From Actinomycetota bacterium (GTDB lineage: Bacteria; Actinomycetota; JAHEXW01): a DNA stretch of 64,000 bases. Of this stretch, positions 3,308 to 55,471 are shown in pieces. The notes below the pieces were generated by a model. The model did not search any database. It was not told the origin of the DNA and saw only the letters and a list, made by a program, of their open reading frames with translations. The position numbers and the translations under genes were made by a program. Location of the stretch: positions 88,713 to 152,712 of the forward strand of contig JANXYU010000003.1 in assembly GCA_025355855.1 (NCBI GenBank). Direction: 5' to 3'. Each line of letters starts with the position of its first letter. Position 1 is the stretch's first letter.

Positions 3308-4037
3308 ACTGATCGCGTTGCGCCTTAAATTTAGGACTCTCGGGCTGATAATCGCTTTGTCTTGCGTCGGCGTCCTGCTATTCGGCGCCACGGCGCTGGC
3401 AGACACCGCCTATTTTGTAAAGAACAGCTCGGAATCCGGTTTGTTCGTAAACGCGCTCAGTGACACCGTTTCGGGGTCGACTTTGGAGTATTCGATATTA
3501 AACATGACGCCGGGCCAAATTTCTTATTTCGGCTCACCGAACGCGACCTCGTATTCCAAGGTCTATCCGGGCGGCAACGGTGTCGCGGCCGGGAATTGGA
3601 CGCTTAGTGCCTGGGGTCGGTCCCTGAACGCCTCTAAAGTAGTATTCTCCGCCGAGATCGGGGAATACACCAGCGCCGGAACCTATACCGTCAAGATACC
3701 GTACGGCGACACGCCGGCCGGTTTTGGCTGGACACCCGATTTTAAGGGGGCTAACGCGACCATGAAGAGTGTCACCAAAGTCGGGGCGCCCGCCTTTACG
3801 ATTGCGGCCGGGAGCCGGATTTATGTGAGGATATACGCCAAAAATACACACTCAACACAGAATCGGGATGCCTTCCTGGCATATAACTCGACCGCAACCA
3901 ATTCAAATCTGTCGACCCCTCCGTTCGCTCAGCCTATACCCGCTCTGGGTTGGTATCTGGTTTTGGCCGGCATCGTGGTGTTCGCGTTCTTCGCCGTCGG
4001 GCAGGGTGTCTTGAAGGTGAGAAGGGATGAAGCTTGA
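3300..4037 (+). CDS. secreted Ser/Thr/Asn-rich protein with signal peptide, nine N-x-S/T sequons and a C-terminal motif+TM helix+basic tail; candidate exosortase-type sorting substrate
   Basis: ATG 3300 opens MHKLIALRLKFRTLGLIIALSCVGVLLFGATALA|DT (AxA cleavage site). The C-terminus is ...PPFAQPIPALGWYLVLAGIVVFAFFAVGQGVLKVRRDEA. The TGA stop overlaps the TTG start of the next gene. Confidence 0.5.
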   Translation: MHKLIALRLKFRTLGLIIALSCVGVLLFGATALADTAYFVKNSSESGLFVNALSDTVSGSTLEYSILNMTPGQISYFGSPNATSYSKVYPGGNGVAAGNWTLSAWGRSLNASKVVFSAEIGEYTSAGTYTVKIPYGDTPAGFGWTPDFKGANATMKSVTKVGAPAFTIAAGSRIYVRIYAKNTHSTQNRDAFLAYNSTATNSNLSTPPFAQPIPALGWYLVLAGIVVFAFFAVGQGVLKVRRDEA

Positions 4038-4633
4038 CTCAGGTCGGCACCGTATTGCTGAGCATTGCTGCGATAACCGCCTACTTGATCGGCGTGATCT
4101 ATTTTCGACGGCGCCGGGCCTGGTTGGGATATTACCTGTTCGCGACTGTCGGGCTAACGCTTATCTTGGTTTTCGGCGCGCAATTGACCGGCTTATCCGA
4201 CAGGATCGAGTATCTAGTCACTTGGCTGACCGCCCGCGCCTCACTGTTGTTAGGCATCCAGGCACAATTCCTGGGCCAAAACGAATTGATGGTCTCAGAC
4301 AAAGCGGGCTGGGTCATTTTGCGAACAACGATCGAGTGCTCGGCCTTGATCGAAACCAGCGTACTGATCGCTTTGGTTGCGTTCTATCCGGCCTTCAGGT
4401 GGACCAAGAAAGCGGCAATTTTGTCTTTCGGCCTGCCGATTACCTGGCTGTCCAACATCGTTCGGTTGCTGATCATCACGGCAGTGACGGCATTCTTTGG
4501 CCGACAAGCAGTGTTTTTCGGACACGCCGTCGTGGGCCGGTTCTTTTTTTTGGTGGTAACAATTGCCCTGTACTGGTACATCCTGACGATGCCGACAGTA
4601 AAACACATCGGGAAGTCTCTAGAACAAGGATAG
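4034..4633 (+). CDS. exosortase/archaeosortase-family protein, minimal ~199-aa form (XrtG-like)
   Basis: Polytopic membrane protein carrying family signature residues in context: TTIECSALIETSVL (Cys), NIVRLLIITAV (Arg), FGHAVVGRFFF (His/Arg). TTG start is coupled to the upstream stop. A family-2 glycosyltransferase follows immediately, as in the Gram-positive XrtG subfamily. Confidence 0.55.
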   Translation: MTQVGTVLLSIAAITAYLIGVIYFRRRRAWLGYYLFATVGLTLILVFGAQLTGLSDRIEYLVTWLTARASLLLGIQAQFLGQNELMVSDKAGWVILRTTIECSALIETSVLIALVAFYPAFRWTKKAAILSFGLPITWLSNIVRLLIITAVTAFFGRQAVFFGHAVVGRFFFLVVTIALYWYILTMPTVKHIGKSLEQG

Positions 4634-4647
4634 AGGCGAGATTCTAA

Positions 4648-6291
4648 ATGGACGGTTTGTGGACGTTTATGCTGATCTGGGGTGTTTGGATCCTGCTGCC
4701 GATTCTGGTGGACGGGTCAGACACACTTCTCAGGCTATTCGTTGTGCTGCTTTGGGGACGCAAGAAAATCCGGCCGACTGTCGCCGACGCCGACTTGCCG
4801 TTCGTCTCCATCCTTGTGCCCGCGTATAACGAAGACCAAGTCATCGACCGCTGTTTGAACTCGATCAAACTGCAGGACTATCCGCACGACAAGATGGAGG
4901 TCATTGTAATTAATGACGGTTCGAGCGACCTTACCGCGGATAAGGTTCTAAGCCATATCGACGGCCGCGAAGTCGGCATGCGCGATCTTAACCAGCGCGA
5001 TCCCAAGGGCGCCGTAAGCGATGCGGGCGAGGTTTTCAGGGTCGTACCGCCGGGCATCTATCGCAGTAAAGACATCGTCGTTGACGAAGAATCCCGCCGC
5101 CCGAAGCACGACGAAGCCCTCTTGGAAGGCAAGTATGTCGACGTCCCCGAATTCAGCGGCGAGATGACGCTCATTAATAACCACCACTTTGGCAAACCGA
5201 CCGCGTTAAACTCGGGCATCTCACAGATGAACGGGAGTCAGATAATCTTTACGGTCGACTCCGACGTCGTTCTTGATGGCGGCGCGGTACGCAATATGGT
5301 CTACGCGTTTCTGGATGATCCCAAATTGGGCGCAGCGACCGGACACATCGAGATATCCGAGGATATCGTGGAGGAACGCGACGAACTTGGTAACCTTGTC
5401 TTAGATGAGAAGGGCCACCTGATTCGCAAGAAGATGAACTTTATGCAAACCGCTTTGACGCGTCTCCAATTCCTGGAGTATTTGGACGCGTTCCGGCTCG
5501 GGCGGCAGTTCCAGGCGACGATCGGTTCCGCATACATCTTGGCGGGCGCCTTCTCCGCATTCAGGCGCAGCACCCTTATGAAGACCGAACTCTATAAACC
5601 GCGCACGGTCAGCGAGGATTTTGACTTGACCGTCGATATCCATGAAACCGGCGAGAAAGTCGGTTATGTCGCTGAATCTAAGGCCTTGCTGGCGCCTGTC
5701 ATTAACGTCAATGCTCTGTATTCCCAGCGTGTGCGCTGGTGCAGAGGACAGCTGGAAGTAGCCGGGGCGCACCAGAAAGTAATCGGCAACCGGCGTTATG
5801 GCATGGTTGGCTGGTTCGGTTTTCCGCAGATGCTGATTACCGATCACACCTTAAGTTTTCCCAGATTGATCTGGACGATTCTGATCATCATGTTTCCGCT
5901 CTTCGGTTATCCTGTTAGCACAGTCACACTGGCCCTATTGTTTACCTATGCGTTTTATGTTGTGCTTAGTTTCATGCAAACCTTCGCCGCCTACGTGATA
6001 GTAGATGGGGAAACAAAACGCAAGACGGAACGGGCCTTGGGTTGGTGTTTCGCCTTACCGTTCTACCGCTTGGTCGTATTCTACTTCCGGATGTCCGGCT
6101 ACTTGCGAACCCTTACTGAGCCAGCCGGTTGGGACATCACGTCTAAGACTTTGGTTAACGCGAACGCGAATATCGACAGACTGAAGGACGGGGCCGCCGG
6201 GATGCTCCGTACCTACAAAAGAACCGCCCATGGCGTCGCCGCCATCGTACGCTCCGTCATGATGCTCGTCCTCTTGTTCGTGCGGGACTAG
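4648..6291 (+). CDS. processive family-2 glycosyltransferase (membrane-embedded polysaccharide-synthase type)
   Basis: Motifs VPAYNED, DGSSD, GKPTALNSG, TVDSDVV (DxD), SEDFDLT, QRVRWCRGQ (QxxRW). N- and C-terminal TM helices. An ~90-aa insertion sits between DGSSD and GKPTALN. Confidence 0.75.
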   Translation: MDGLWTFMLIWGVWILLPILVDGSDTLLRLFVVLLWGRKKIRPTVADADLPFVSILVPAYNEDQVIDRCLNSIKLQDYPHDKMEVIVINDGSSDLTADKVLSHIDGREVGMRDLNQRDPKGAVSDAGEVFRVVPPGIYRSKDIVVDEESRRPKHDEALLEGKYVDVPEFSGEMTLINNHHFGKPTALNSGISQMNGSQIIFTVDSDVVLDGGAVRNMVYAFLDDPKLGAATGHIEISEDIVEERDELGNLVLDEKGHLIRKKMNFMQTALTRLQFLEYLDAFRLGRQFQATIGSAYILAGAFSAFRRSTLMKTELYKPRTVSEDFDLTVDIHETGEKVGYVAESKALLAPVINVNALYSQRVRWCRGQLEVAGAHQKVIGNRRYGMVGWFGFPQMLITDHTLSFPRLIWTILIIMFPLFGYPVSTVTLALLFTYAFYVVLSFMQTFAAYVIVDGETKRKTERALGWCFALPFYRLVVFYFRMSGYLRTLTEPAGWDITSKTLVNANANIDRLKDGAAGMLRTYKRTAHGVAAIVRSVMMLVLLFVRD

Positions 6292-9518: not shown

Positions 9519-10642
9519 AGGTGATGGCCGTTTTTGGCACTCGGCCGGAAGCAATCAAGCTGGCGCCGGTTATCGACGAGTTACGGCAACGGGACGGGGT
9601 CGAATGTCGCGTCGTAGTCACGGCGCAGCATCGGGAGATGATCGACCAGGCTTTGAATATTTTCGAAATCCGGCCGGACGCGGACCTGAATATTATGCGC
9701 CCCGACCAGACGCTGGACGATGTCGTCTGCCGGGCGCTGGCCGGGATTGCGCCTGTCTTTGAAACCATGGAGCCGGATGTCGTTTTGGTCCAAGGAGACA
9801 CGACGAGCGCGCTGGCGATGGCTTTGGCCGCCAGTCACCGCGGCATCACCGTCGGCCACGTGGAAGCCGGCCTGCGCACCCACGACAAGGCGCACCCGTT
9901 TCCGGAAGAACTGAATCGTCAAATGATCGGCCGCCTGGCCGACCTCCATTTCGCCCCGACCGAGATCGCCCGCGATAATCTGCTGGCAGAAGGCATAGCG
10001 TCAGATCGCGTCTTCCTGACAGGCAACACAGTCGTTGACACGCTGCTCCGGCTATCAACCGAGATTAGAGAACCGGTGGACGATACGCTACGGCGAATTG
10101 ATTTCGATAAACAAAGGGTCATTCTCGTAACCGCGCACCGGCGCGAGAATTTCGGGGCGCCTCTCGAGCATATTGCGACCGCCGTTAGGCAAATCGCGGA
10201 GGAACATGCGGACGTCGAGATTGTCCTACCGGTACATCCGAACCCACGCGTTAGCGCGGTAATGCGCGCGGCGCTCGCTAACGTCGAACGCGTCCATTTG
10301 GTTAAACCACTAAACTACTCCGATCTAATCTGGGTCTTAGCGCGTTGCTATTTCGCCATGACGGATTCCGGCGGCATTCAGGAGGAAGCTCCGACTTTTA
10401 AGAAGCCCGTACTGGTTATGCGGGAGAAGACGGAGCGGCCTGAAGGTATTGAGGCCGGCGTTGCTAAAATCGTTGGGACGACCGTTTACCGCCTGGTCGG
10501 CGCGGCATCCGATTTGCTTAATAACGAAGGGGTCTACGCCAGCATGCGGGCCCGGAAGAACCCCTACGGCGACGGCCATGCCGCCGCCCGGATCGCCGAC
10601 ATTCTGCTCGAAACCCTATCAGATACTGCGAGAAAACTCTAA
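9509..10642 (+). CDS. wecB: UDP-N-acetylglucosamine 2-epimerase (non-hydrolysing)
   Basis: MALKVMAVFGTRPEAIKLAPV...HVEAGLRT...RENFG...TDSGGIQEEAP are typical WecB/MnaA family segments; 377 aa. Confidence 0.9.
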   Translation: MALKVMAVFGTRPEAIKLAPVIDELRQRDGVECRVVVTAQHREMIDQALNIFEIRPDADLNIMRPDQTLDDVVCRALAGIAPVFETMEPDVVLVQGDTTSALAMALAASHRGITVGHVEAGLRTHDKAHPFPEELNRQMIGRLADLHFAPTEIARDNLLAEGIASDRVFLTGNTVVDTLLRLSTEIREPVDDTLRRIDFDKQRVILVTAHRRENFGAPLEHIATAVRQIAEEHADVEIVLPVHPNPRVSAVMRAALANVERVHLVKPLNYSDLIWVLARCYFAMTDSGGIQEEAPTFKKPVLVMREKTERPEGIEAGVAKIVGTTVYRLVGAASDLLNNEGVYASMRARKNPYGDGHAAARIADILLETLSDTARKL

Positions 10643-10690
10643 CCAAACAGCTTTAGGTATTAGCAAAGATTTTTAGTTGCCCTGCTTTCG

Positions 10691-10790
10691 TGCTTTAAAG
10701 CGCTAAAGCGGCGCTACTTCAGCGCTACGTAGCGCTGAAGTGTTTCGTGCACAGGACTCACTTCACCGCTATGTAGCGGTGAAGTGGAAC
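10691..10790. repeat. palindromic repeat cluster (CTTTAAAG and AGCGCT cores; perfect 24-bp palindrome CTTCAGCGCTACGTAGCGCTGAAG at 10717..10740; variant CTTCACCGCTATGTAGCGGTGAAG at 10761..10784)
   Basis: Read directly. Lies between convergent wecB and the nfnB-like gene. The same family recurs at 28398-28520, 36127-36156 and 49578-49601. Confidence 0.8.
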
Positions 10791-10833: not shown

Positions 10834-12270
10834 TTACGGACGGGGTTGTTGCAGATATGCGTCAATGGATTTGGCGGCGCGTTTACCGGCGCCCATTGCC
10901 GCGATAACCGTCGCGCTGCCGGTGACTATATCACCGCCAGCGAAAACGCCCGGGAGGCTGGTCTGGCCGGTGGCTTCGGCCGCCGCTATATAACCGCGGT
11001 CGGTAAGGTTTAAACCGGGGGTCGCGTTACCGATGAGCGGGTTGGCGCGGGTGCCGATGGCCATAATCACCGTGTCGACGTCTAACACAAACTCCGAACC
11101 GACTACCTCGAAAGGACGACGGCGACCGCTGGCGTCGGGCTCACCCAGCTCCATAGTTATACAACTAAGTCCGGAGACTCGGCCGCTGTCGTCTCCCAAA
11201 ATCTCGATTGGGTTGTTTAGCAGTTTGAACTCGATACCTTCATCCCCGGCGTGGTGAACCTCTTCGGCGCGGGCGGGCAACTCTTCGAGGCTCCGCCGGT
11301 AAACAAGATAGACATGTTCCGCGCCAAGGCGCATCGCGACGCGCGCGCTATCGATTGCGACATTGCCGCCGCCGACAACCGCGACATTCTTCCCGCGGGC
11401 GATGGGGGTGTCATATTCGGGGAATAAATAAGCTTTCATGAGATTGGCTCGAGTCAGAAACTCATTAGCGGAATAGACGCCGTTCAGATTCTCGCCGGGA
11501 ATGTTCATGAACATGGGAAATCCCGCACCTGACGCGATAAAGACGGCGTCGTAGCCATGGTCAGACATTAGTTCCTTAACACCGAATAAATGGCCGATCA
11601 CGGCGTCTGTTCTAATCTCGACGCCCAGGCCTTTTATGTACTCGACCTCGCTTTTAACGATGTCTTTAGGCAAACGGAATTCGGGGATGCCGTAGACAAG
11701 CACCCCACCCGGCTCGTGCAGCGCCTCGAACAGTGTCACCGCATAACCCAGCCGCGCCAAATCGCTGGCGCACGTCAGTCCGCCGGGTCCGGAGCCGACA
11801 ACGGCGACTTTCTTGTTAGACGCGAGGCGTGAGACGCGAGGCGTGAGTTGCCTTCCGGCTTGTTCTCGCTCATAGTCAGCCACAAATCTCTCCAAGCGGC
11901 CAATAGCCAGCGGCTCGAAACGTTTGCCGAGAACGCAGCCGTTCTCGCATTGCTTCTCTTGCGGACAAACTCGGCCGCAAACCGCGGGCAGAGCGTTATT
12001 TTCTTTTATCTTTTGGGATGCTTCGGCAAACTTGCCCTCTTTGACCAGAGCGACAAATTCCGGGATAGGTACCTCAACAGGACACCCTGCCTGGCAAGTC
12101 GGTTTACGACAGCTAAGGCAGCGGGCGGCTTCCGCCAGCGCGTCTTCTTCTGAATAGCCCAGCGCGACTTCCTCGAAATTGCGAGCGCGCCTCTTGGGGT
12201 CCTGTTCCGGCATCGGTCGGCGCGACTGCTTGGGAGAGGGCGCGCGCTTTTCTATTTCTGACACTGGCAT
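10834..12270 (-). CDS. NADPH-dependent glutamate-synthase-small-subunit-like flavoprotein (NfnB/SudA-type)
   Basis: N-terminal 2x Fe-S Cys clusters (CLSCRKPTCQAGCPVEVPIP..., CGRVCPQEKQCENGC) and two Rossmann motifs (VAVVGSGPGGL, VAVVGGGNVAID). Confidence 0.75.
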   Translation of the reverse strand: MPVSEIEKRAPSPKQSRRPMPEQDPKRRARNFEEVALGYSEEDALAEAARCLSCRKPTCQAGCPVEVPIPEFVALVKEGKFAEASQKIKENNALPAVCGRVCPQEKQCENGCVLGKRFEPLAIGRLERFVADYEREQAGRQLTPRVSRLASNKKVAVVGSGPGGLTCASDLARLGYAVTLFEALHEPGGVLVYGIPEFRLPKDIVKSEVEYIKGLGVEIRTDAVIGHLFGVKELMSDHGYDAVFIASGAGFPMFMNIPGENLNGVYSANEFLTRANLMKAYLFPEYDTPIARGKNVAVVGGGNVAIDSARVAMRLGAEHVYLVYRRSLEELPARAEEVHHAGDEGIEFKLLNNPIEILGDDSGRVSGLSCITMELGEPDASGRRRPFEVVGSEFVLDVDTVIMAIGTRANPLIGNATPGLNLTDRGYIAAAEATGQTSLPGVFAGGDIVTGSATVIAAMGAGKRAAKSIDAYLQQPRP

Positions 12271-28397: not shown

Positions 28398-28520
28398 TGC
28401 TTTAGCGCTTTAAAGCACTACAGCGCTCCAGCGTAGGGATTCGATTACTTCAGCGCTACGTAGCGGTGAAGCGTCCAACGTGACGGTTCGATTACTTCAG
28501 CGCTACGTAGCGGTGAAGTA
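28398..28520. repeat. palindromic repeat cluster: GCTTTAGCGCTTTAAAGCACTACAGCGCT followed by two tandem ~47-bp units, each containing the near-palindrome CTTCAGCGCTACGTAGCGGTGAAG
   Basis: Read directly; 24-mers at 28448..28471 and 28495..28518; lies between the cooC/acsF-like gene and nikR. Confidence 0.8.
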
Positions 28521-28548
28521 ATCGATAAGTATTTAGAGAGAGGTCATT

Positions 28549-36031: not shown

Positions 36032-36126
36032 GCAGCCAACCGCGCTCAATTCCATGTCAATCTTTTCGCTCGACAACATTGTCTTCCTGAGCATAATCCT
36101 GATTGAAAATGAGGTAAAGCGCGTAA

Positions 36127-36156
36127 GCGCTTTAGTGCTTTAAAGCACTAAAGCGC
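36127..36156. repeat. perfect 30-bp palindrome GCGCTTTAGTGCTTTAAAGCACTAAAGCGC (same repeat family as 10691-10790 and 28398-28520)
   Basis: Read directly; between convergent paralog-1 and tspO genes. Confidence 0.85.
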
Positions 36157-36176
36157 TCTGGGCTAAATGGGAAGAG

Positions 36177-40843: not shown

Positions 40844-43564
40844 TCACTTTTGCGATATCTTCGCGGCTGCGACCTTTAGCTCCGGGATCTTCGCTACCGG
40901 ATCTAACGCCGGATTCGTGACCGCATTGGCCGCCGCCTCCGCGTAGTGGAACGGCATATATATAACCCCAACCGGCACATCCTCCGTTAGCCGCGCCTTC
41001 GCCGTCACGCTGCCGCGCCTCGTCGTAACCGTCACCGACCGCTTGTTCTTCACCCCGTACTTCTTCGCGTCAGCCGGATTGATGTCGACCCTGGCCTCCG
41101 GTTCGATCTCGTTTAAGCCGTCGACCTTCCTGGTCATCGTGCCTGTGTGCCATTGAGCCAGGTAGCGACCGGTGGTCAAGATTAGCGGATACTTGGCGTC
41201 TGTGACTTCCGCAGGCGGTTTGTAATCGATGGCGTGGAATTTGCCTTTGCCGCGGGCGAACGTTTCCGTGTGCAGGATTGGCGTGCCCGGATGGCCGGGC
41301 GTCGGGCAGGGCCAGTGAATGCCGCAAACTTCGATCCGATGATGGCTGATGCCGCCGTACGCGGGTGTGACCGCCGCGATCTCTTCGAAGATGGCAGCCG
41401 ATGAATGGTAGTTCATTTTGTAACCGAACTTGGACGACACCAGACCGATGATCTTCCAATCGCTCAAAGCCTCGCCAGGCGGTTGGATGGCCTTACGGAC
41501 CGGTTGGACGCGCCGTTCGGTGCTGGTGAACGTACCGGACTTCTCCGCGAAGGTCGCGGCCGGCAGGACGACGTCGGCCAGCCGCGCCGTTTCTGTCAAG
41601 AAGATATCCTGGACGACCAGGAAGTCTAGGCCTTTCAGACCGGCGATAATGTGGGCCTGGTCCGGCTCGGACAAAATGGGGTTCTCGCCCATGATGTACA
41701 TGGCGCGAATGCCGCCCTTGGCCGCCGGTGTGCCGGCCGCTCTAGTCATCTCCGTGGCCGTTAACCCGGGTTTTTTCGGCAACTTCCGGCCCCAGGCCGC
41801 CTCAAATGATTTTCGAACACCGACATCGGCGACACTTTGGTAGCCCGGGTAAACGTTCGGCAGGGCTCCCATATCGCAGGCGCCCTGGACGTTGTTCTGG
41901 CCGCGCAGGGGGTTGACGCCCATACCAGGTTGGCCGATGTTCCCGGTCATCATCGCCAGGTTGGCTAGAGTCATGACGTTGTCCACGCCGGTCGTGTGCT
42001 GAGTGATGCCCATGGCGTAGATGATGGTCGCTTTGTCCGCGCCAGCGTAGATCTCCGCCGCGCGAACGATGTCGGCCGCCGGAATGCCGGTGATTGATTC
42101 AACGTAGTCGGGCGTGTATTTTTCGACCATGGCCACGACGGCCGCGAAGCCCTCCGTCCTCTCTTTGATAAACGATTTATCGGCCAGGCCGATATCCAAA
42201 ATGACGTGCATTAAACCATTGATGAGCGCGACGTCGGTGCCCGGTTTCTGAGACAGCCACATGTCGGCGTATTTTACCAACGGGATCCGGCGCGGTTCCG
42301 CCACAATCAAACGGGCGTCTTTGTTCTTTACAGAGTCGATGATGTTCAAGCCCAGAATGGGGTGGGCCTCGGTCGTGTTCGAGCCAATGACCAGAATGAC
42401 GTCAGCCTCCCCGATGTCCTCCAGGGAATTCGTCATCGCCCCGCTGCCAAACGCCGCGGCCAGACCGGCCACCGTTGGGCTGTGTCACAATCGAGCGCAG
42501 TTGTCGATGTTGTTCGTACCGACCCCCGCGCGGGCAAACTTTTGCATCAGGTAATTCTCTTCGTTGGTACATTTGCTGGAGGAAAGGAAGCCGATGGCGT
42601 CGGCCCCGTATTCCTGTTTGGTTCTCTTCAGTCCGGCGGCGACGGCCGCGATGGCTTCGTTCCACGACGCCGGCACCAGCTCCCCGTCCTTGCGTATTAA
42701 TGGGGTGATCAGACGGTCCGGGCTGTTCACGAAACCGTAGCCGAAGCGGCCTTTCACGCACAGGTCGCCCTTGTTGACCGGAGAATCCTCCCGCGAGGTG
42801 ACGCGCACGATGTGCTGGCCGTCGGTTTCCAAGACTATGGCACAGCCAACGCCGCAATACGGACAGGTGGTGACCGTTTTCTTGAGGTCTTTGCTGCGGC
42901 CCCGGTAGCGGCTGGGCTTCTCAGTCAACGCGCCGACGGGGCAGACCGAGACACAGCGCCCGCATTGGACGCATTCGGTTTCCGGTAGGGGACGGTTAAG
43001 GGCGGACGTGACCATCGTGTCAAAGCCGCGTCCCATGTAGTCGATGACCTCGCAGAACTGGAGCTCCTGACACGCCTGAGCGCAGCGGTAACATTTCACG
43101 CATTTTTCGAAATCCCGGACAATGAACGGGTTGGCGGTATCGATGGGATAACGGTTGCGCCGCCCCCGGAAACGGGAATCGGCGACCTGATATTCATAAG
43201 CCAGGTCCTGCAGTTTACAATGTCCGCTCTGTTCGCACGTCAGACAATCGCCGGGGTGATCGGAGAGCAACAGCTCCAGCACCAGTCGGCGGGCGGCCAC
43301 GGCGCGGTCGGTATGGGTCAGCACCCGCATGCCCGATTCGGCGGGACGGGCACAAGCCGCGATCAATGGACGGCCCGGACCCTCGCCCTCCAGCTCGACG
43401 ACGCAAAGACGGCACGCGCCGGTCGGCGTGAGATGCCGGTGGTTGCACAGATGAGGAATATCGACCTTGGCCTTATGGGCGGCTTCCATGATGGACGCGC
43501 CGCGATGAATCTTTACGGGCACGTCGTTAATGAACAGGGAAACTGTATCGGACTTTCTAGCCAC
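40844..43564 (-). CDS. fdhA: selenocysteine-containing formate dehydrogenase catalytic subunit (FdhF/FdhA-like; N-terminal 2Fe-2S/4Fe-4S ferredoxin modules + Mo/W-bis-PGD domain), in-frame UGA at 42487..42485
   Basis: Two track ORFs (42485..43738 and 40844..42472) are in the same frame, separated by TGA + HSPT. The joined sequence ...[30 protein letters not shown] matches the E. coli FdhF Sec140 context NCARV-U-HGPSVAGL. The likely start is GTG 43564 with a GGGAGG RBS, overlapping the NuoF-like stop by 8 nt. Confidence 0.85.
42445..42487 (-). promoter_or_regulatory. bacterial SECIS element directly 3' of the fdhA UGA
   Basis: mRNA UGA CAC AGC CCA ACG GUG GCC GGU CUG GCC GCG; the GCC-GGUCU-GGC hairpin with GGUC apical loop is at the same register as the E. 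coli fdhF SECIS (UGA CAC GGC CCA UCG GUU GCA GGU CUG CAC). Confidence 0.65.
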
Positions 43565-45287
43565 GGTTGGCCTCCCGATTCGCGGGCCGCCGCTTGCAAA
43601 TGCCATGCGGGCATTTCTTGTGTTCGATATGGGCGACGTATTCATCGCGGAAATATCGGATGGTGGACAAGACCGGGTTGGGCGCGTTTTGGCCCAGGCC
43701 GCAGAGAGACGTGTCGCGCACCACGGCCGCCGTCTCAATCAACAGGTCGATGTCTTCAATTTTCCCGTTGCCGCCGGCGATGCGTTCCAAAATCTCCAGC
43801 ATGCGGGTAGTGCCGACGCGGCAGGGGGTGCATTTGCCGCACGATTCGGCCGCCGAAAACGCCAGAAAATAGCGGGCGATATCGACCATACAGGCGGTTT
43901 CGTCGAGAACGATGACGCCGCCGCTGCCCATGATGGCCCCGACTTTGCTCAAGGTGTCGTAGGTCACGGACAGATCCAGAAATTCGGCCGGGATACAGCC
44001 GCCGGACGGGCCGCCCATCTGAACCGCTTTGAATTCCTTACCGTCGATGATGCCGCCACCCAGGTCGAAGATGAGCTCACGCAGGGTGATGCCCATCGGG
44101 ACCTCGACCAGTCCGGTGTTGTTCAGCTTACCAGCCAGGCTGAAGACCTTTGTGCCGCGCGAGGTACCGGAGCCCATGTCGTTGTAGACATCGGCGCCGC
44201 GGCCGATGATAACAGGCACGTTGGCCAGGGTCTCAACGTTATTGATGCAGGTTGGTTGGCCCCAAAGTCCGGCTACCGCCGGATAGGGCGGGCGGGGGCG
44301 GGGTGTGCCGCGTTTGCCCTCCAAACTGGCGATCAGCGCGGTTTCTTCCCCGCAGACGAACGCGCCGGCGCCTTCCTTGACCGTAATGTCGAAGTCGAAG
44401 CCGGAGCCCAAAATGTTCTGGCCGAGCAGGCCATATTTTCGCGCCTGGTCGATGGCCAGGGTGAGATGCTCGACGGCGATGGGATATTCCGCGCGCACAT
44501 AGATGTAGCCTTCGGACGCGCCGATGGCGAAGCCCGCAATGATCATGCCTTCGATGACGGCGTGCGGATCGCCCTCCATGACGCCGCGATCCATAAACGC
44601 GCCGGGGTCGCCCTCGTCGCCATTGCAGATGAGATATTTCGGTTTGGATCTTTCCTTGCGCGCCAGGCGCCACTTCAAAAAGGTCGGGAAACCGGCGCCG
44701 CCGCGGCCGCGCAGGCCGGACGCCTCCAGTTCGTTTATGATGCCGTTGGGGGTCAACCTTATCAGGGCGCGCGCCGCCGCCGCGTAGCCGCCAGTCCGGA
44801 TGTAGGCGTCGAGGGAGCGCGGGTCGACGCGACCAAGGTTGCGCAACACGCTGCGTTCCTGCGCCTTATAGAACGGGACTTCGGCGGCTTGTGTTATCGG
44901 CTGGCCGGTGGCCGGGTCTTTGTAGGCCAGGCGGTTAATGGGTTTTTTGTTTAATATGGTCTTCTGCACTATCTCCGGAACGTCGGCCGGTTTGACCTGG
45001 CCGTAGAAGATGCTGACTGGATCGATCTCGATGACGGGCGCCTGGGCGCAGAAACCGTGGCAGCCTGTTTCAACGACTTCGATGTTCTTGCGCTCGGCCG
45101 CCGGGAGCCTGGCGATTTCTTTGGCGAGCGCCGCGGAGACCGCGTCGGCGCCTGACGCCCGGCAACCGGTCATGCAGACGCGGACCCGCGTCTTATTCGG
45201 GTCGTAAGCCGTCTGCAAACGGTTACGCAAAGCGTTGAGGTCAGTCCGCGTATTTAGTTTTTGCGTGTTCGGTACGTTCTTTGGCAC
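43557..45287 (-). CDS. NuoF/HydB-like NAD(P)H-binding flavoprotein subunit with N-terminal thioredoxin-like [2Fe-2S] and C-terminal 2x[4Fe-4S] (formate dehydrogenase beta / HylB-like)
   Basis: GRGGAGFPT, FMN/NADH motifs, C-terminal CGKCTPCR...CGLGQ; GTG start with AGGAGC RBS. Confidence 0.85.
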   Translation of the reverse strand: MPKNVPNTQKLNTRTDLNALRNRLQTAYDPNKTRVRVCMTGCRASGADAVSAALAKEIARLPAAERKNIEVVETGCHGFCAQAPVIEIDPVSIFYGQVKPADVPEIVQKTILNKKPINRLAYKDPATGQPITQAAEVPFYKAQERSVLRNLGRVDPRSLDAYIRTGGYAAAARALIRLTPNGIINELEASGLRGRGGAGFPTFLKWRLARKERSKPKYLICNGDEGDPGAFMDRGVMEGDPHAVIEGMIIAGFAIGASEGYIYVRAEYPIAVEHLTLAIDQARKYGLLGQNILGSGFDFDITVKEGAGAFVCGEETALIASLEGKRGTPRPRPPYPAVAGLWGQPTCINNVETLANVPVIIGRGADVYNDMGSGTSRGTKVFSLAGKLNNTGLVEVPMGITLRELIFDLGGGIIDGKEFKAVQMGGPSGGCIPAEFLDLSVTYDTLSKVGAIMGSGGVIVLDETACMVDIARYFLAFSAAESCGKCTPCRVGTTRMLEILERIAGGNGKIEDIDLLIETAAVVRDTSLCGLGQNAPNPVLSTIRYFRDEYVAHIEHKKCPHGICKRRPANREANRG

Positions 45288-45550
45288 CTAGCTCCTAAAG
45301 TGTGTCTCCCGATAAGAAAGACTATATCTGGCGGGTCCACCCCCACCTTTCATCCTCCCCCTTCCCGTAGGGGGAGGAAAAAACTAAACCAAAGCTCTAA
45401 AACTGTCCACCTCCTAGGAGGAGGAAATAAATATATGTACTTCCCGTTAGGGAATCGATTGCACTTCTTCTAGCGTCCCCCAAGGAGAGGCAAATATCTA
45501 GTCGCTCGTCTTAAATAATTCGACGCGCGGGTGAATCGAATACACTGTCC

Positions 45551-45644
45551 GGCGGGTGGCGCGACTGGGGGGACCCCCAGATCGCGCGCAGGCCACCGAT
45601 CGGCGAGCACGATATGGGGGAAGTCTGTCGCGACAGGACCCGCC
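45551..45644. repeat. ~90-bp TIR-bounded structured repeat (copy A): GGCGGGTG...CTGGGGGGACCCCCAG...GACAGGACCCGCC
   Basis: Read directly; aligns with copy B (46920..47010) and partial copy C (50677..50715); inside the 400-bp nuoE/nuoF spacer. Confidence 0.7.
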
Positions 45645-45690
45645 GGATTTCACTCCCGCACCTGCTCGTCACTCTTTAAGAACGCGAGCG

Positions 45691-46113
45691 TCACTTGCTC
45701 TTTCTGTACTTATCCAGCACTTCCACAGCCTTCTCCGCCGTTAGCTTCCCGTAATACTCGCCGTCCACCGTCATGACCGGGGCCAGGAAACAAGAGCCAA
45801 GGCAGGCGACGGTGTCGAGCGTGAATAGTCGGTCGGGCGTGGTCTCGCCGGGTTCGATGCCCAGCTCCGTTCGCAACCGCTTCAGCACGTCGGTACCGCC
45901 TTTGACGTGGCAAGCGGTGCCGTCGCAGACGGTGACGCGGTGCTTGCCGACCGGTTTCAGCCGGAACTGGGAATAAAAGGTCGCCACCGAATAGATCTCG
46001 GAGAGCGGCACGCCCAATTCTTTGCTGACTCGCTCAATTTTGGCCGCGGGCAGGTAGCCTTCCTTGGCTTGAACCTTTTGAAGTGTGGTGATCAGCTGCC
46101 CGCGTTCGCTCAC
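45691..46113 (-). CDS. NuoE/HydC-like [2Fe-2S] thioredoxin-fold subunit
   Basis: CDGTACHVKG...CLGSC Cys pattern of the 24-kDa subunit family. Confidence 0.85.
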   Translation of the reverse strand: MSERGQLITTLQKVQAKEGYLPAAKIERVSKELGVPLSEIYSVATFYSQFRLKPVGKHRVTVCDGTACHVKGGTDVLKRLRTELGIEPGETTPDRLFTLDTVACLGSCFLAPVMTVDGEYYGKLTAEKAVEVLDKYRKSK

Positions 46114-46919: not shown

Positions 46920-47010
46920 GAGCGGGTGACGTCGGTGGGGGACCCCCGCAGCGCGCGCAGGCCACCAGCCAACGAGCACGTAGTAGGGGTGACCGATGGC
47001 AGGACCCGCC
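46920..47010. repeat. ~90-bp TIR-bounded structured repeat (copy B), between metF and acsE
   Basis: GAGCGGGTGACGTCGGTGGGGGACCCCCGCAGCGCGCGCAGGCCACC...GGCAGGACCCGCC; ~70% identical to copy A with a conserved GGGGGACCCCC hairpin and GCGGGT/ACCCGC termini. Confidence 0.7.
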
Positions 47011-47950: not shown

Positions 47951-48072
47951 TTTTTCGTTAGCCGCTAGAACTTTGTAGCTGCCAGTCTTTATGACCGGCA
48001 GTCGAGCGCCGACCTAAAGGACGGCGCCTACCCGTTGTCGCGGAGGATTCACCGTATAATTTCTACTCTTTA

Positions 48073-48742: not shown

Positions 48743-50665
48743 TCACTCCTTGATGGCGATCATGGCCGGTTCGAGACCCAGTTCGGTAAGTGTGGCTTGG
48801 ACGGATGCGACGCGGGCGATCGTCCGGTCGCGGGCAGTGCCGAAGAAACAACCTTCCTCGGGACACAGCGACACGTTCACCTTAGCCGCGCCGGCCCGCA
48901 GTGCTTCCAGCATCAATAGTTCGCTGACCTGACCGATACACATCGCGGGGACAATCGTGTGACCTTGCGGGAGCTCGTCAGCATCGTTATAAAGACGGTT
49001 CATGCAGTAGAAATCGACCTGTTTCGCGGCCGCCGCGGCGGCAACGGCCTCGTCAAGCAGACGTTCCTCTTGACCGCGCCGGAGTGTAATGGCGCCGGCC
49101 GGACATTCGGTGGCGCACAGACCGCACGCCTGGCATTCCGCTGTATCAATGACAGCGACATTGTCGGCGCCGATCTTCGGAATCTCAAAAGGACAGACGC
49201 GCACGCACGTTAAACAGGCAATACATTTTTCCGGGTCAACTACCGCGCCGGACAGGCAAGCCATGCAGCGCAAACCCTCACGCGCCGCCTCGACCTCTGT
49301 TAAACCCGGCTCGAACAGCTCGAAGTCCCGGACGCGATCGGCGGACGGGCGCGTCATGCCGGTGCGGCGCTGGCGGGCCGGCACGAGCGGACGCATCCGC
49401 TCGGGCAAGTCGGCTAACACGGCCGGCTCGTAAACGGCAGCCGGTTTGCCGGTTAGAAACGCGGCGACGGCCGCGGCGACAACATGGCCGTTCTGTACCG
49501 CACCGATGGCGCTCCCTGGCCCGGTCGCGAACTCCCCTGCCATGAAGACATCCCGCGGTTGTTCTTTCGTTATGTCAACTTCAGCGCTACGTAGCGCTGA
49601 AGTGTCCCGGCCTTGGCCGATAGAGACAATAACGGTCTCACCGGCTACTGTCAAGAATTTGTCGGGGACGAATTGCGGGTCGAAACGGCCTTCTTCGTTG
49701 AATACGCGTGACACGGCCTGACAGGTAAGACCCTCGACCGAGGCGCCGGAGCTGACTAGTTTTGATGGACCGAGGCAGCAGTTCAGGTTGACACCTTCGG
49801 CGGCCGCCTCTTCGATCTCCCAATCATGCGCTGGCATTTTATCGCGCGACTCCAGGCAAACCAGGTTTACCTCCTTGGCGCCCAACCGGACAGCGGTCCG
49901 GGCAACGTCAATGGCAACGTTGCCGCCGCCGACCACGATGACCCTACTTTTGAGCGCCGGCGGATTCCCCGCCTTGACGGCTTTCAAAAACGGGATCGCG
50001 GTGTAGACGTTATCGCCTTCTGTCGGGAAAACGGGCAGGCTGCGGGAAAAAGGCAAGCCGGTCGCGATAATGACTCCGTCATTATCGGCTCTTAATTCGT
50101 CGATACTAAAATCTTTGCCAAGCTCTTGACCATATTTGATTTTAACCCCGGTCGCAGCGACTTCATTGATATCACAGTCAAGTGCCGTGTCTGGGAGGCG
50201 ATAGTTTGGGATGGTAAGGCGAAGCATACCGCCGGCTTTGGGCTCGCGTTCGAAAACGGTGACCTTGTGGCCGGCCGCGACCAGGTCTTGGGCGGCGGTA
50301 AGGCCCGCGGGCCCGGCCCCGATGATCGCGATACGTTTGGCCTCTCCACCCAGATTCCTTCTTTGCATGTGGAACTGTCCGTTCGACGCTGACTCAGGAT
50401 CTGGCCCGCAGGCTTCGCCGAATGCCGCTGCGGCTCGTTTAAGTTCCATGATGGAGATCGGCTGGTCGACTGAGGCGCGGCGGCAGTTCTGCTCGCACGG
50501 GCGGAAGCAGATATAGCCGCAGCTATTGGAGAATGGATTGGTCAGGCGCGCGACGTCGTAGGCTTCGGTGAAACGGCCGAGCGCCGTCAGGGCCACGTAG
50601 CCCTGAACGTCGGTAAATGCCGGACAAGCCGCCTGACACGGCGGCACAAAATCACGCATAAACAC
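48743..50665 (-). CDS. GltD/NfnB-like FAD-NAD(P) flavoprotein fused to a 2x[4Fe-4S] ferredoxin and an MvhD/FlpD-like domain (MetFV-associated electron-transfer subunit)
   Basis: N-terminal FVPPCQAACPAFTDVQGY...CGYICFRPCEQNC, Rossmann motifs IAIIGAGPAGL and VIVVGGGNVAID, then CIACLTCVRVCPF/CQACGLCATECP and a Cys-rich tail. Confidence 0.6.
   Translation of the reverse strand: MFMRDFVPPCQAACPAFTDVQGYVALTALGRFTEAYDVARLTNPFSNSCGYICFRPCEQNCRRASVDQPISIMELKRAAAAFGEACGPDPESASNGQFHMQRRNLGGEAKRIAIIGAGPAGLTAAQDLVAAGHKVTVFEREPKAGGMLRLTIPNYRLPDTALDCDINEVAATGVKIKYGQELGKDFSIDELRADNDGVIIATGLPFSRSLPVFPTEGDNVYTAIPFLKAVKAGNPPALKSRVIVVGGGNVAIDVARTAVRLGAKEVNLVCLESRDKMPAHDWEIEEAAAEGVNLNCCLGPSKLVSSGASVEGLTCQAVSRVFNEEGRFDPQFVPDKFLTVAGETVIVSIGQGRDTSALRSAEVDITKEQPRDVFMAGEFATGPGSAIGAVQNGHVVAAAVAAFLTGKPAAVYEPAVLADLPERMRPLVPARQRRTGMTRPSADRVRDFELFEPGLTEVEAAREGLRCMACLSGAVVDPEKCIACLTCVRVCPFEIPKIGADNVAVIDTAECQACGLCATECPAGAITLRRGQEERLLDEAVAAAAAAKQVDFYCMNRLYNDADELPQGHTIVPAMCIGQVSELLMLEALRAGAAKVNVSLCPEEGCFFGTARDRTIARVASVQATLTELGLEPAMIAIKE
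49578..49601. repeat. perfect 24-bp palindrome CTTCAGCGCTACGTAGCGCTGAAG embedded in-frame in the 48743..50665 CDS (encodes TSALRSAE)
   Basis: Identical to the intergenic palindrome at 10717..10740. Confidence 0.85.
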
Positions 50666-50676
50666 TCCGTATATTT

Positions 50677-50715
50677 GCTCCCCGCTAGGGGAGTCAAGTT
50701 CATGACAGGACCCGC
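50677..50715. repeat. partial copy C of the TIR element (CTCCCCGCTAGGGGAG hairpin + GACAGGACCCGCC) in the acsC/flavoprotein intergenic spacer
   Basis: Read directly. Confidence 0.55.
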
Positions 50716-50727
50716 CAGACTATCTTC

Positions 50728-55348: not shown

Positions 55349-55471
55349 TAGACCCTCCCACTGCGAGCAATCAGCTCGCCTTGCGCGTTGCCTTCGTAGC
55401 TGCCGGTCTTTAGACCGGCAGTCGAGCGCCGACCTAAAGGTTGGCGCCTACATCTCTACACTCGTACGTGT

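Follow-up and report, generated by a model that had tools for sequence, protein, structure and literature searches.

Small palindromic repeats comparable to the one analyzed here are known as ERIC, REP, MITE and TRIT sequences. ERIC (IRU) elements of Enterobacteriaceae are imperfect palindromes of ~127 bp that lie in transcribed intergenic DNA in either orientation, are conserved between species while their locations differ, and have size variants that stem from internal indels at fixed points; they have been reported to change the stability of upstream mRNA (PMC3184786). REP sequences, 20-40 nt long with a GTAG or CGTC tag, and the RAYT-mobilised REPINs are GC-rich, multi-copy extragenic palindromes, found mostly just downstream of coding regions, with larger hairpins and a conserved unpaired motif beside the stems (PMC3733652, PMC3116915). 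MITEs such as Correia/CREE, RUP and Nezha are non-coding, 100-200 bp long and co-transcribed with their neighbours, have complementary ends and differ in presence between related genomes (PMC3184786); in the classical form their terminal inverted repeats are conserved and match a parent insertion sequence. For REP and MITE elements alike, most copies lie past the end of coding regions; they are co-transcribed and can change how stable the mRNA is (PMC3733652, PMC3184786). TRIT, present in 147 copies and in Mycobacterium only, is a conserved structured palindrome that is tied to stop codons, being centred ~8 nt before them, and lacks a classical U-tail (PMC3152330).

We analyzed a 64-kb stretch of DNA (hereafter the window) in which an operon for the Wood-Ljungdahl pathway contains an unusually long intercistronic spacer (Table 1). 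This spacer is probably a lineage-specific expansion of a very short nuoE-nuoF junction, in which small non-coding palindromic elements were inserted, partly duplicated and then decayed. Copy A, which is intact, and copy B, in another spacer of the same operon, are members of a dispersed palindromic repeat family and most likely arrived by REP/ERIC/MITE-like insertion.

Table 1 Positions of the spacer, its parts, its flanking genes and the related repeat copies in the window
Feature	Position	Strand	Basis
Whole intercistronic spacer, 403 bp, between NuoE-like and NuoF-like genes	45288..45690	-	ORF map and Pfam; junction lengths of relatives
NuoE-like 2Fe-2S subunit gene, upstream of the spacer	45691..46113	-	Pfam PF01257, E = 1e-51
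NuoF-like FMN/NAD-binding subunit gene, downstream of the spacer	43557..45287	-	Pfam PF01512, PF10589
Remnant of the ancestral short spacer	45288..45342	-	blastn alignment to the 61-bp spacer of L007
Putative inverted partial module: GGCGGGTCC, ~14-15 nt, G5/C5 hairpin (45353-45378)	45330..45378	+	Layout as in copy C
Degenerate duplicate of the hairpin module, GTCCACCTCC-TAGGAGGAGGAAATAAATA, including the palindrome 45410-45421 and the 12-codon ORF	45400..45473	+	Direct repeats D1, D4, D5
Copy A, full hairpin element (152 nt): core and complementary outer arms GUGCGGGAGUGAA / UUCACCCGC	45520..45671	-	RNA and DNA folds
Copy A core (94 nt), GGCGGGUCCUG to CCACCCGCC; the motif at 45636-45644 is its 5' end	45551..45644	-	Covariance model R1; alignments A2 and A3
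Copy B core, in the MetF/AcsE spacer, 7 nt past the MetF stop; no outer arms	46922..47010	-	R1, 61 bits
Copy C, putative partial module: GGCGGGUCCUG, 14 nt, CUCCCC-UAGC-GGGGAG hairpin; 11 nt past the CdhD stop	50678..50716	-	Not detected by R1

The enlarged nuoE-nuoF junction

The Wood-Ljungdahl gene cluster occupies ~40.8-60.7 kb of the window on the minus strand, as recognized from Pfam matches and a gene order shared with relatives. It comprises RACo, CbiA, FolD, CdhD, AcsB, CdhD/AcsC and HdrA/MvhD-like genes, as well as MetV, MetF, AcsE, NuoE-like, NuoF-like and FdhA genes, the last three encoding subunits of a formate dehydrogenase. The spacer is presumed to be co-transcribed with the operon. 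No sigma-70-like promoter was found between 44800 and 47200 and no terminator was found in the spacer on the minus strand; no T-run lies 3' of copy A, copy B or the G5/C5 hairpin (see below) on the transcribed strand, so none of these has the form of an intrinsic terminator. Tandem Repeats Finder returned nothing for the spacer, ARAGORN found no tRNA or tmRNA, and blastn searches against plasmids and phages, with the spacer and with one long-type element of the family, gave no match.

The FdhA gene of this cluster (40844-43738, minus strand) is a single gene with an in-frame TGA at 42485-42487 in the context NCARL-U-HSPTVA, and the catalytic subunit of the formate dehydrogenase is therefore a selenocysteine enzyme. 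FdhA of the relatives is likewise called as two ORFs at the TGA point. No tRNA-Sec was found in the 64-kb window.

Where relatives share this gene order, their nuoE-nuoF junction measures -4 bp (L002), 7 bp (L005), 61 bp (L007) and ~80 bp (L008), the AcsE proteins of these loci being 86%, 83%, 91% and 97% identical to that of the window, respectively. Thus, ~340 bp were gained in the window lineage. The closest genome locus is that of L008, a MAG named "Actinomycetes bacterium nzgw113", with a DNA identity of 81-87%; together with AcsE homologues it assigns the source of the window to the uncultured Actinomycetota. The motif GGCGGGTCC, discussed below, is absent from the spacers of all four loci, and no homologous long spacer was found in the relatives examined. 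The first-pass annotation, a reading of the sequence without database searches, had suggested that this is no ordinary spacer; the short junctions of the relatives and the family copies found elsewhere bear this out, since they mark it as lineage-specific inserted DNA. Part of the ancestral junction survives as the last ~55 nt of the spacer, which carries a decayed hairpin, GUCUUUC..GGGAGAC, as well as the nuoF Shine-Dalgarno sequence AGGAG (45292-45296), 4 nt ahead of the GTG start at 45287.

In L008 a different palindrome, a GCTTTAGTGC..GCACTAAAGC element (11215-11248), fills the nuoE/nuoF spacer, and a GTAG-tagged element (9891-9950) the metF/acsE spacer; both palindrome families are also present elsewhere in the window. 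These junctions are hot spots for the turnover of small palindromic repeats. Intercistronic DNA thus turns over fast between these related groundwater lineages, with different palindromic families at the same junctions, and such turnover could retune subunit stoichiometry via mRNA stability.

Other repeats and spacers in these loci were recorded alongside. The GCTTTAGTGC..GCACTAAAGC family is found in three intergenic regions of the window (10684-10713, 28399-28428 and 36121-36158). The GTAG...CTAC-tagged element is REP-like, 56 nt long and made of two hairpins; its two copies in the window (47975-48031 and 55396-55451, minus strand), 93% identical to each other, sit in the MetV/MetF and FolD/CdhD spacers, and the L008 copy is in a different spacer, MetF/AcsE. 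Logan contig L001 breaks within this element. L005 (GCA_936416925.1) has two enlarged operon spacers of its own, a purine-rich one of 241 bp between MetF and AcsE (9760-10000) and one of 279 bp before CdhD (4327-4605), and none of the window repeat families was found in either.

Structure, members and hosts of the repeat family

Copies A and B share an irregular hairpin that begins with helix P1, GGCGGGU/ACCCGC(C), followed by P2, P3 and P4. They are 75% identical, and 77% identical over the 53 nt that pair 45568-45620 of copy A with 46937-46989 of copy B, so that copy A is indeed the repeat that it had been taken for. P2 is wholly unlike between the copies, reading CGCGAC/GUCGCG in one and UCGGU/ACCGA in the other as a result of compensatory changes. 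The full copy A element folds at -77.5 kcal/mol as RNA (z = -3.9) and at -38.9 kcal/mol as DNA, and its 3' arm is homologous to the flank of the metagenomic locus L067. The covariance model R1 scores the copy A core at 67.7 bits (minus strand) versus 7.8 bits (plus strand); its hits in the window are copies A and B alone, on the minus strand alone, and it finds nothing in the relatives of the operon. Folding energy shows no strand preference, meaning that either DNA or RNA could be the target of the constraint.

At its 5' end the family core invariably reads GGCGGGUCC(UG). The 9-mer GGCGGGTCC occurs four times in the window, versus 1.16 times expected, a count attained in only 1 of 100 shuffles. 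Its positions (45330 on the plus strand; 45636, 47002 and 50708 on the minus strand) all fall within three spacers of one operon. The 64 kb hold two intact and two partial copies; that all copies of the motif lie in one operon, and two intact copies in one window, is odd for a randomly dispersed element.

We scanned metagenomes with the pattern GGCGGGTCCTGN{25,55}GGCCTGCGCG and obtained at least 120 loci, most of which are chance hits in GC-rich genes; 15 clear homologues of copies A and B were found among the metagenome matches listed. One of these, L067/L138 from Hainich groundwater, closely resembles both copies, with identities of 76% (A) and 79% (B) that include the 3' arm. The 14 others are of a longer type with a core of ~108 nt, and two of them (L021 and L043) carry a further hairpin of 39 nt; long-type copies with differing flanks number at least 13 in the metagenomes. 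Across the family the core is ~90-110 nt long (85-147 nt across members), GC-rich and variable in its apical segment, running from 5' GGCGGGUCCUG to CACCCGC 3', and an alignment of 16 sequences, on which R1 was built, has 45 invariant columns.

In the covariation alignment, which was fitted to R1 and hence favours the structure, pairing extends to 96.9% of cells, and both sides have changed in 11 of 30 pairs. None of 500 shuffles reaches these values, slid controls are 41-58% paired, and single-sequence folds independently give the same architecture. Of the seven variants of helix P2, six pair throughout, and that of the L065 type has one C-U mismatch. A covariation-supported secondary structure is present, as would equally be expected of a palindromic DNA repeat. 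Among six long-type copies the cores are 91.5% identical, the arms 62-64% and the unrelated flanks 49-50%; the arms of L063, L074 and L088 are unrelated in sequence to those of the main type and still complementary. The asymmetric loops of the core are invariant, namely a CCU bulge, GUSCUCG / CCUGCGCG and an unpaired CCCC run. A core that is better conserved than its arms and common to apparent phyla points to a stronger constraint than that acting on a decaying selfish repeat.

Genes next to family members are unrelated to one another, encoding a phosphonate-binding protein, a cyclase, a PQQ dehydrogenase, a cysteine desulfurase, kinases, amidohydrolases and others, and no transposase was found among 44 neighbouring ORFs. 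Orientation relative to the flanking genes is mixed. Members mostly lie ~0-50 nt past a stop codon; some separate co-directional genes, others close a transcription unit and precede ordinary terminators. One filled site, a 171-nt spacer with the element in L134, has an empty counterpart of 14 nt in the related ENA contig L133, the two being too diverged to define the junctions. No clear direct repeat that could be a target-site duplication was found beside copy A, copy B or the long-type copies, and neither a mobilising enzyme nor a parent element was found in the window or the loci compared. The cysteine desulfurase of the long-type contigs is 85-86% identical to MAG proteins labelled "Acidobacteria bacterium RIFCSPLOWO2"; on this evidence the family appears to cross phyla, although MAG labels can be wrong, and its hosts appear to span Actinomycetota and an Acidobacteria-like group. 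For L067, a homologue search gave only four weak matches, which did not place it taxonomically.

Rfam 15, searched at the gathering and at permissive thresholds, gave no match above noise for the window, the spacer (E up to 10), 15 family loci or L065 (E up to 10). The strict core pattern GGTGGCCTGCGCGCGNNNNGGGGGTCCCC had no match in the genome and metagenome collections, which thus lack the source genome. Three scans of viral contigs yielded 3, 1 and 0 hits, of which 0/4 matched R1, and in a full-text literature search the motifs turned up only in primers and unrelated sequences. The A/B family is previously uncatalogued, being absent from Rfam and without a match to its motifs in the literature. 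With its covariation support and a core unusually well conserved across apparent phyla, it is worth cataloguing.

Outside copy A, the spacer holds smaller, degenerate pieces. The G5/C5 hairpin, TCCTCCCCC-ttcccgta-GGGGGAGGA, was found exactly as first described, at 45353-45378 and with no U-run on either strand. Its perfect 9-bp arms extend to 15 nt at 87% complementarity, it folds as RNA at -24.1 kcal/mol (z = -2.6), and it is among only ~nine places in 64 kb that have a perfect stem of 9 bp or longer. The copy at 45330 and copy C have the same layout, which consists of TCTGGCGGGTCC, ~15 nt, a (C)CUCCCC-loop-GGGGAG(G) hairpin and an A-rich tail, with motif and flank agreeing at 12/12 positions. 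R1 gave no score for either, and from their layout we read both as putative truncated or variant modules. The first-pass annotation had grouped copies A, B and C together; A and B form one covarying family, and copy C shares with them only GGCGGGTCCTG and the small hairpin. Three direct repeats, D1, D4 and D5 (GTCCACCCCC/GTCCACCTCC, TAGGGGGAGGAAAAAACTA/TAGGAGGAGGAAATAAATA and CTTCCCGTAGGGG/CTTCCCGTTAGGG), make the region of the 12-bp palindrome a degenerate duplicate of the G5/C5 hairpin module. Since the window has 33 perfect 12-bp palindromes, this one, CCTCCTAGGAGG, is not unusual on its own. Nothing similar to the AT-rich stretch 45380-45520 was found in the window or the compared loci.

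Small hairpins with C-rich and G-rich arms recur in several operon spacers of two lineages (L007, 3339-3359 and 4601-4619; window, 50678-50693 and 45353-45378). Their 3' arm is Shine-Dalgarno-like, and the hairpins lie just upstream of true ribosome-binding sites, where they could sequester or mimic the Shine-Dalgarno sequence.

Likeness to described repeats and competing explanations

The family resembles ERIC/IRU elements in being a long imperfect palindrome (~100-150 nt) that lies in transcribed intergenic DNA in either orientation, is conserved between species at differing locations and varies in size by internal indels at fixed points (here short, long, and with the 39-nt hairpin of L021/L043). 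However, there is no sequence similarity between the two, the hosts are uncultured Actinomycetota and Acidobacteria-labelled bacteria, no TA flanks or target duplications were seen, and the outer arms vary freely around a conserved core. With REP/REPIN sequences the family shares GC-rich, multi-copy extragenic palindromes, mostly just downstream of coding regions, with larger hairpins and a conserved unpaired motif beside the stems, but each member is one irregular hairpin of 90-110 nt with a 5' GGCGGGUCCUG and conserved asymmetric loops. This is too long for a REP, and no conserved GTAG or CGTC tag was found in the family, unlike in the genuinely tagged 56-nt element of the same operon.

Like MITEs, family members are non-coding, 100-200 bp in size, complementary at their ends and co-transcribed with their neighbours, and they differ in presence between related genomes (the window versus L002, L005, L007 and L008; L134 versus L133). 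The ends, conserved in classical MITEs, are here the least conserved part (arms 62-64% versus cores 91.5%), and no parent element was seen. As with TRIT, these are conserved, structured, multi-copy palindromes that are tied to stop codons, lack a classical U-tail and occur in an actinobacterial genome, but TRIT is shorter, and members of our family stand after the stop codon, also inside operons and apparently beyond one phylum. Integron attC sites, IS200/IS605 ends, and bridge, retron, SRP and Y RNAs were also considered from their general descriptions and rejected for want of the defining end motifs, of a neighbouring gene or of a match in Rfam.

A more far-reaching reading, to which we give limited credence, is that the core serves an undescribed mobile element as its functional single-stranded module (RNA or DNA), for recognition or catalysis, or is an RNA device recruited by the host. 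The invariant asymmetric loops, the core identity of ~90%, the drifting but paired arms and the occurrence in two apparent phyla suggest such a module; its covarying structure is equally expected of a palindromic DNA repeat. If this were so, the element would not be a REP, ERIC or MITE in the classical sense.

The first-pass annotation had instead taken 45330-45644 as one segment of ~315 bp bounded by terminal inverted repeats, which would make it a miniature transposon inserted as a single unit, with repeats of 9-13 bp. The motifs are where they were reported (GGCGGGTCC at 45330-45338 and GGACCCGCC at 45636-45644), and the inverted repeat, ATCTGGCGGGTCC / GGACCCGCCGGAT, is real and extends to 13 nt with one mismatch; moreover, homology to the short L007 spacer resumes at ~45342, beside the left repeat. 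A single unit of this kind is nevertheless improbable. Family members elsewhere are 85-150 nt long and end in GGCGGGU...ACCCGC(C) within one hairpin. Copy A is complete alone and its outer arms reach 45671, beyond the proposed right boundary, the interior 45339-45550 has no other copy in the window or compared loci, and target-site duplications were not found beside the copies. The left repeat may also be partly ancestral spacer, given that L007 has GAACCCACT there. Because GGCGGGTCC is the conserved 5' end of the family, the supposed terminal repeats are two family ends, the one at 45330 belonging to a partial module. The repeat unit is the ~90-110-nt core together with the complementary arms that flank it (45520-45671).

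A riboswitch, attenuator, thermosensor or processing signal dedicated to nuoF-fdhA in the Wood-Ljungdahl operon is less probable still, even though the structure covaries and is highly stable, the four motif copies of the 64 kb all lie in spacers of the same operon, and C-rich/G-rich hairpins resembling anti-Shine-Dalgarno/Shine-Dalgarno pairs also occur in L007 spacers. The element is absent from the same operon in 5/5 related lineages examined. A riboswitch would keep a fixed orientation upstream of one gene set, but family members flank unrelated genes in both orientations, usually past a stop and often at the 3' ends of transcription units. The lack of an Rfam match, of a terminator-like U-run and of a promoter-like site, together with a folding energy indifferent to strand, also speaks against it. 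Thus, from the unrelated neighbours in both orientations and from the operons of close relatives without the element, a regulatory RNA dedicated to this operon is unlikely. Of the two options that had been offered for the region, an inserted non-autonomous element or a regulatory RNA, the first is supported, as a structured repeat with copies elsewhere, and the second, in operon-dedicated form, is unlikely.

That the 12-codon plus-strand ORF (45435-45473), antisense to the operon, encodes a functional micropeptide is highly improbable. The palindrome at 45410-45421 and the ATG at 45435 that opens MYFPLGNRLHFF-stop are as described, with a gap from the ribosome-binding site AGGAGGAGG to the ATG of 10 nt, not 9. 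AGGAGG followed by ATG within 4-12 nt opens real long genes in 7/8 window cases, and the sequence is identical in two other assemblies. However, the 23 AGGAGG sites of the window would by chance give one ATG at such spacing, so that the combination is within chance expectation. The Shine-Dalgarno-like motif is half of a palindrome, which is itself part of a degenerate duplicate of the adjacent hairpin, a promoter-like site was not found, the relatives have no homologous spacer, and the identical assemblies, at 99.9% throughout, are uninformative on conservation. An assembly or chimera artefact can practically be dismissed, since two independent Logan assemblies from different runs, L001 (SRR22198310) and L012 (SRR20627840), cover the spacer at 100% identity and the flanking genes at 99.9%. 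Both contigs end at the same base, window 44722, within the NuoF-like gene, which hints at a repeat or a strain-variable point there.

Possible course and consequences of the insertions

We return to the preferred reading, an expansion of a short junction by REP/ERIC/MITE-like repeats. The family elements would be non-autonomous; some enzyme or recombination would copy them, and they would be tolerated at sites just past stop codons. Since transcription of the operon runs through the spacer, it is the mRNA that the hairpin would most likely affect. Lying ~20 nt past the nuoE stop, the copy A hairpin could block 3'-to-5' exonucleases or serve as an RNase processing site, in the way reported for REP and ERIC elements (PMC3184786, PMC3733652), and in co-transcribed form it probably affects mRNA stability. 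The insertion would also end the translational coupling of nuoE and nuoF that is probable in relatives, where the genes overlap or adjoin, leaving nuoF initiation independent and reliant on its own retained Shine-Dalgarno sequence, AGGAG. In E. coli, REPs within ~15 nt of a stop codon can lower translation of the gene that precedes them; copy B, at 7 nt, and copy C, at 11 nt, lie inside this range.

Colonisation by hairpin repeats explains an odd 400-bp gap in a central carbon-fixation operon, and this guards against annotating such a gap as a riboswitch, small RNA or micropeptide gene.

Further observations concern selenium genes and another palindrome. A tRNA-Sec gene (3558-3648) lies 1.7 kb from the long-type element in L043, and a Se_S_carrier gene (4529-4795) directly precedes one in L134. 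A link of the family with selenium genes through these and the Sec-containing FdhA of the window was considered and judged coincidental, because the other neighbours are unrelated. Finally, a 26-bp perfect palindrome, ACTTCAGCGCTACGTAGCGCTGAAGT, belongs to an intergenic repeat family with copies at 10716-10741, 28441-28471 and 28495-28525. At 49578-49603 it lies in frame inside the HdrA-like gene 48743-50665, where it encodes TSALRSAEV; the L008 peptide differs at this place.
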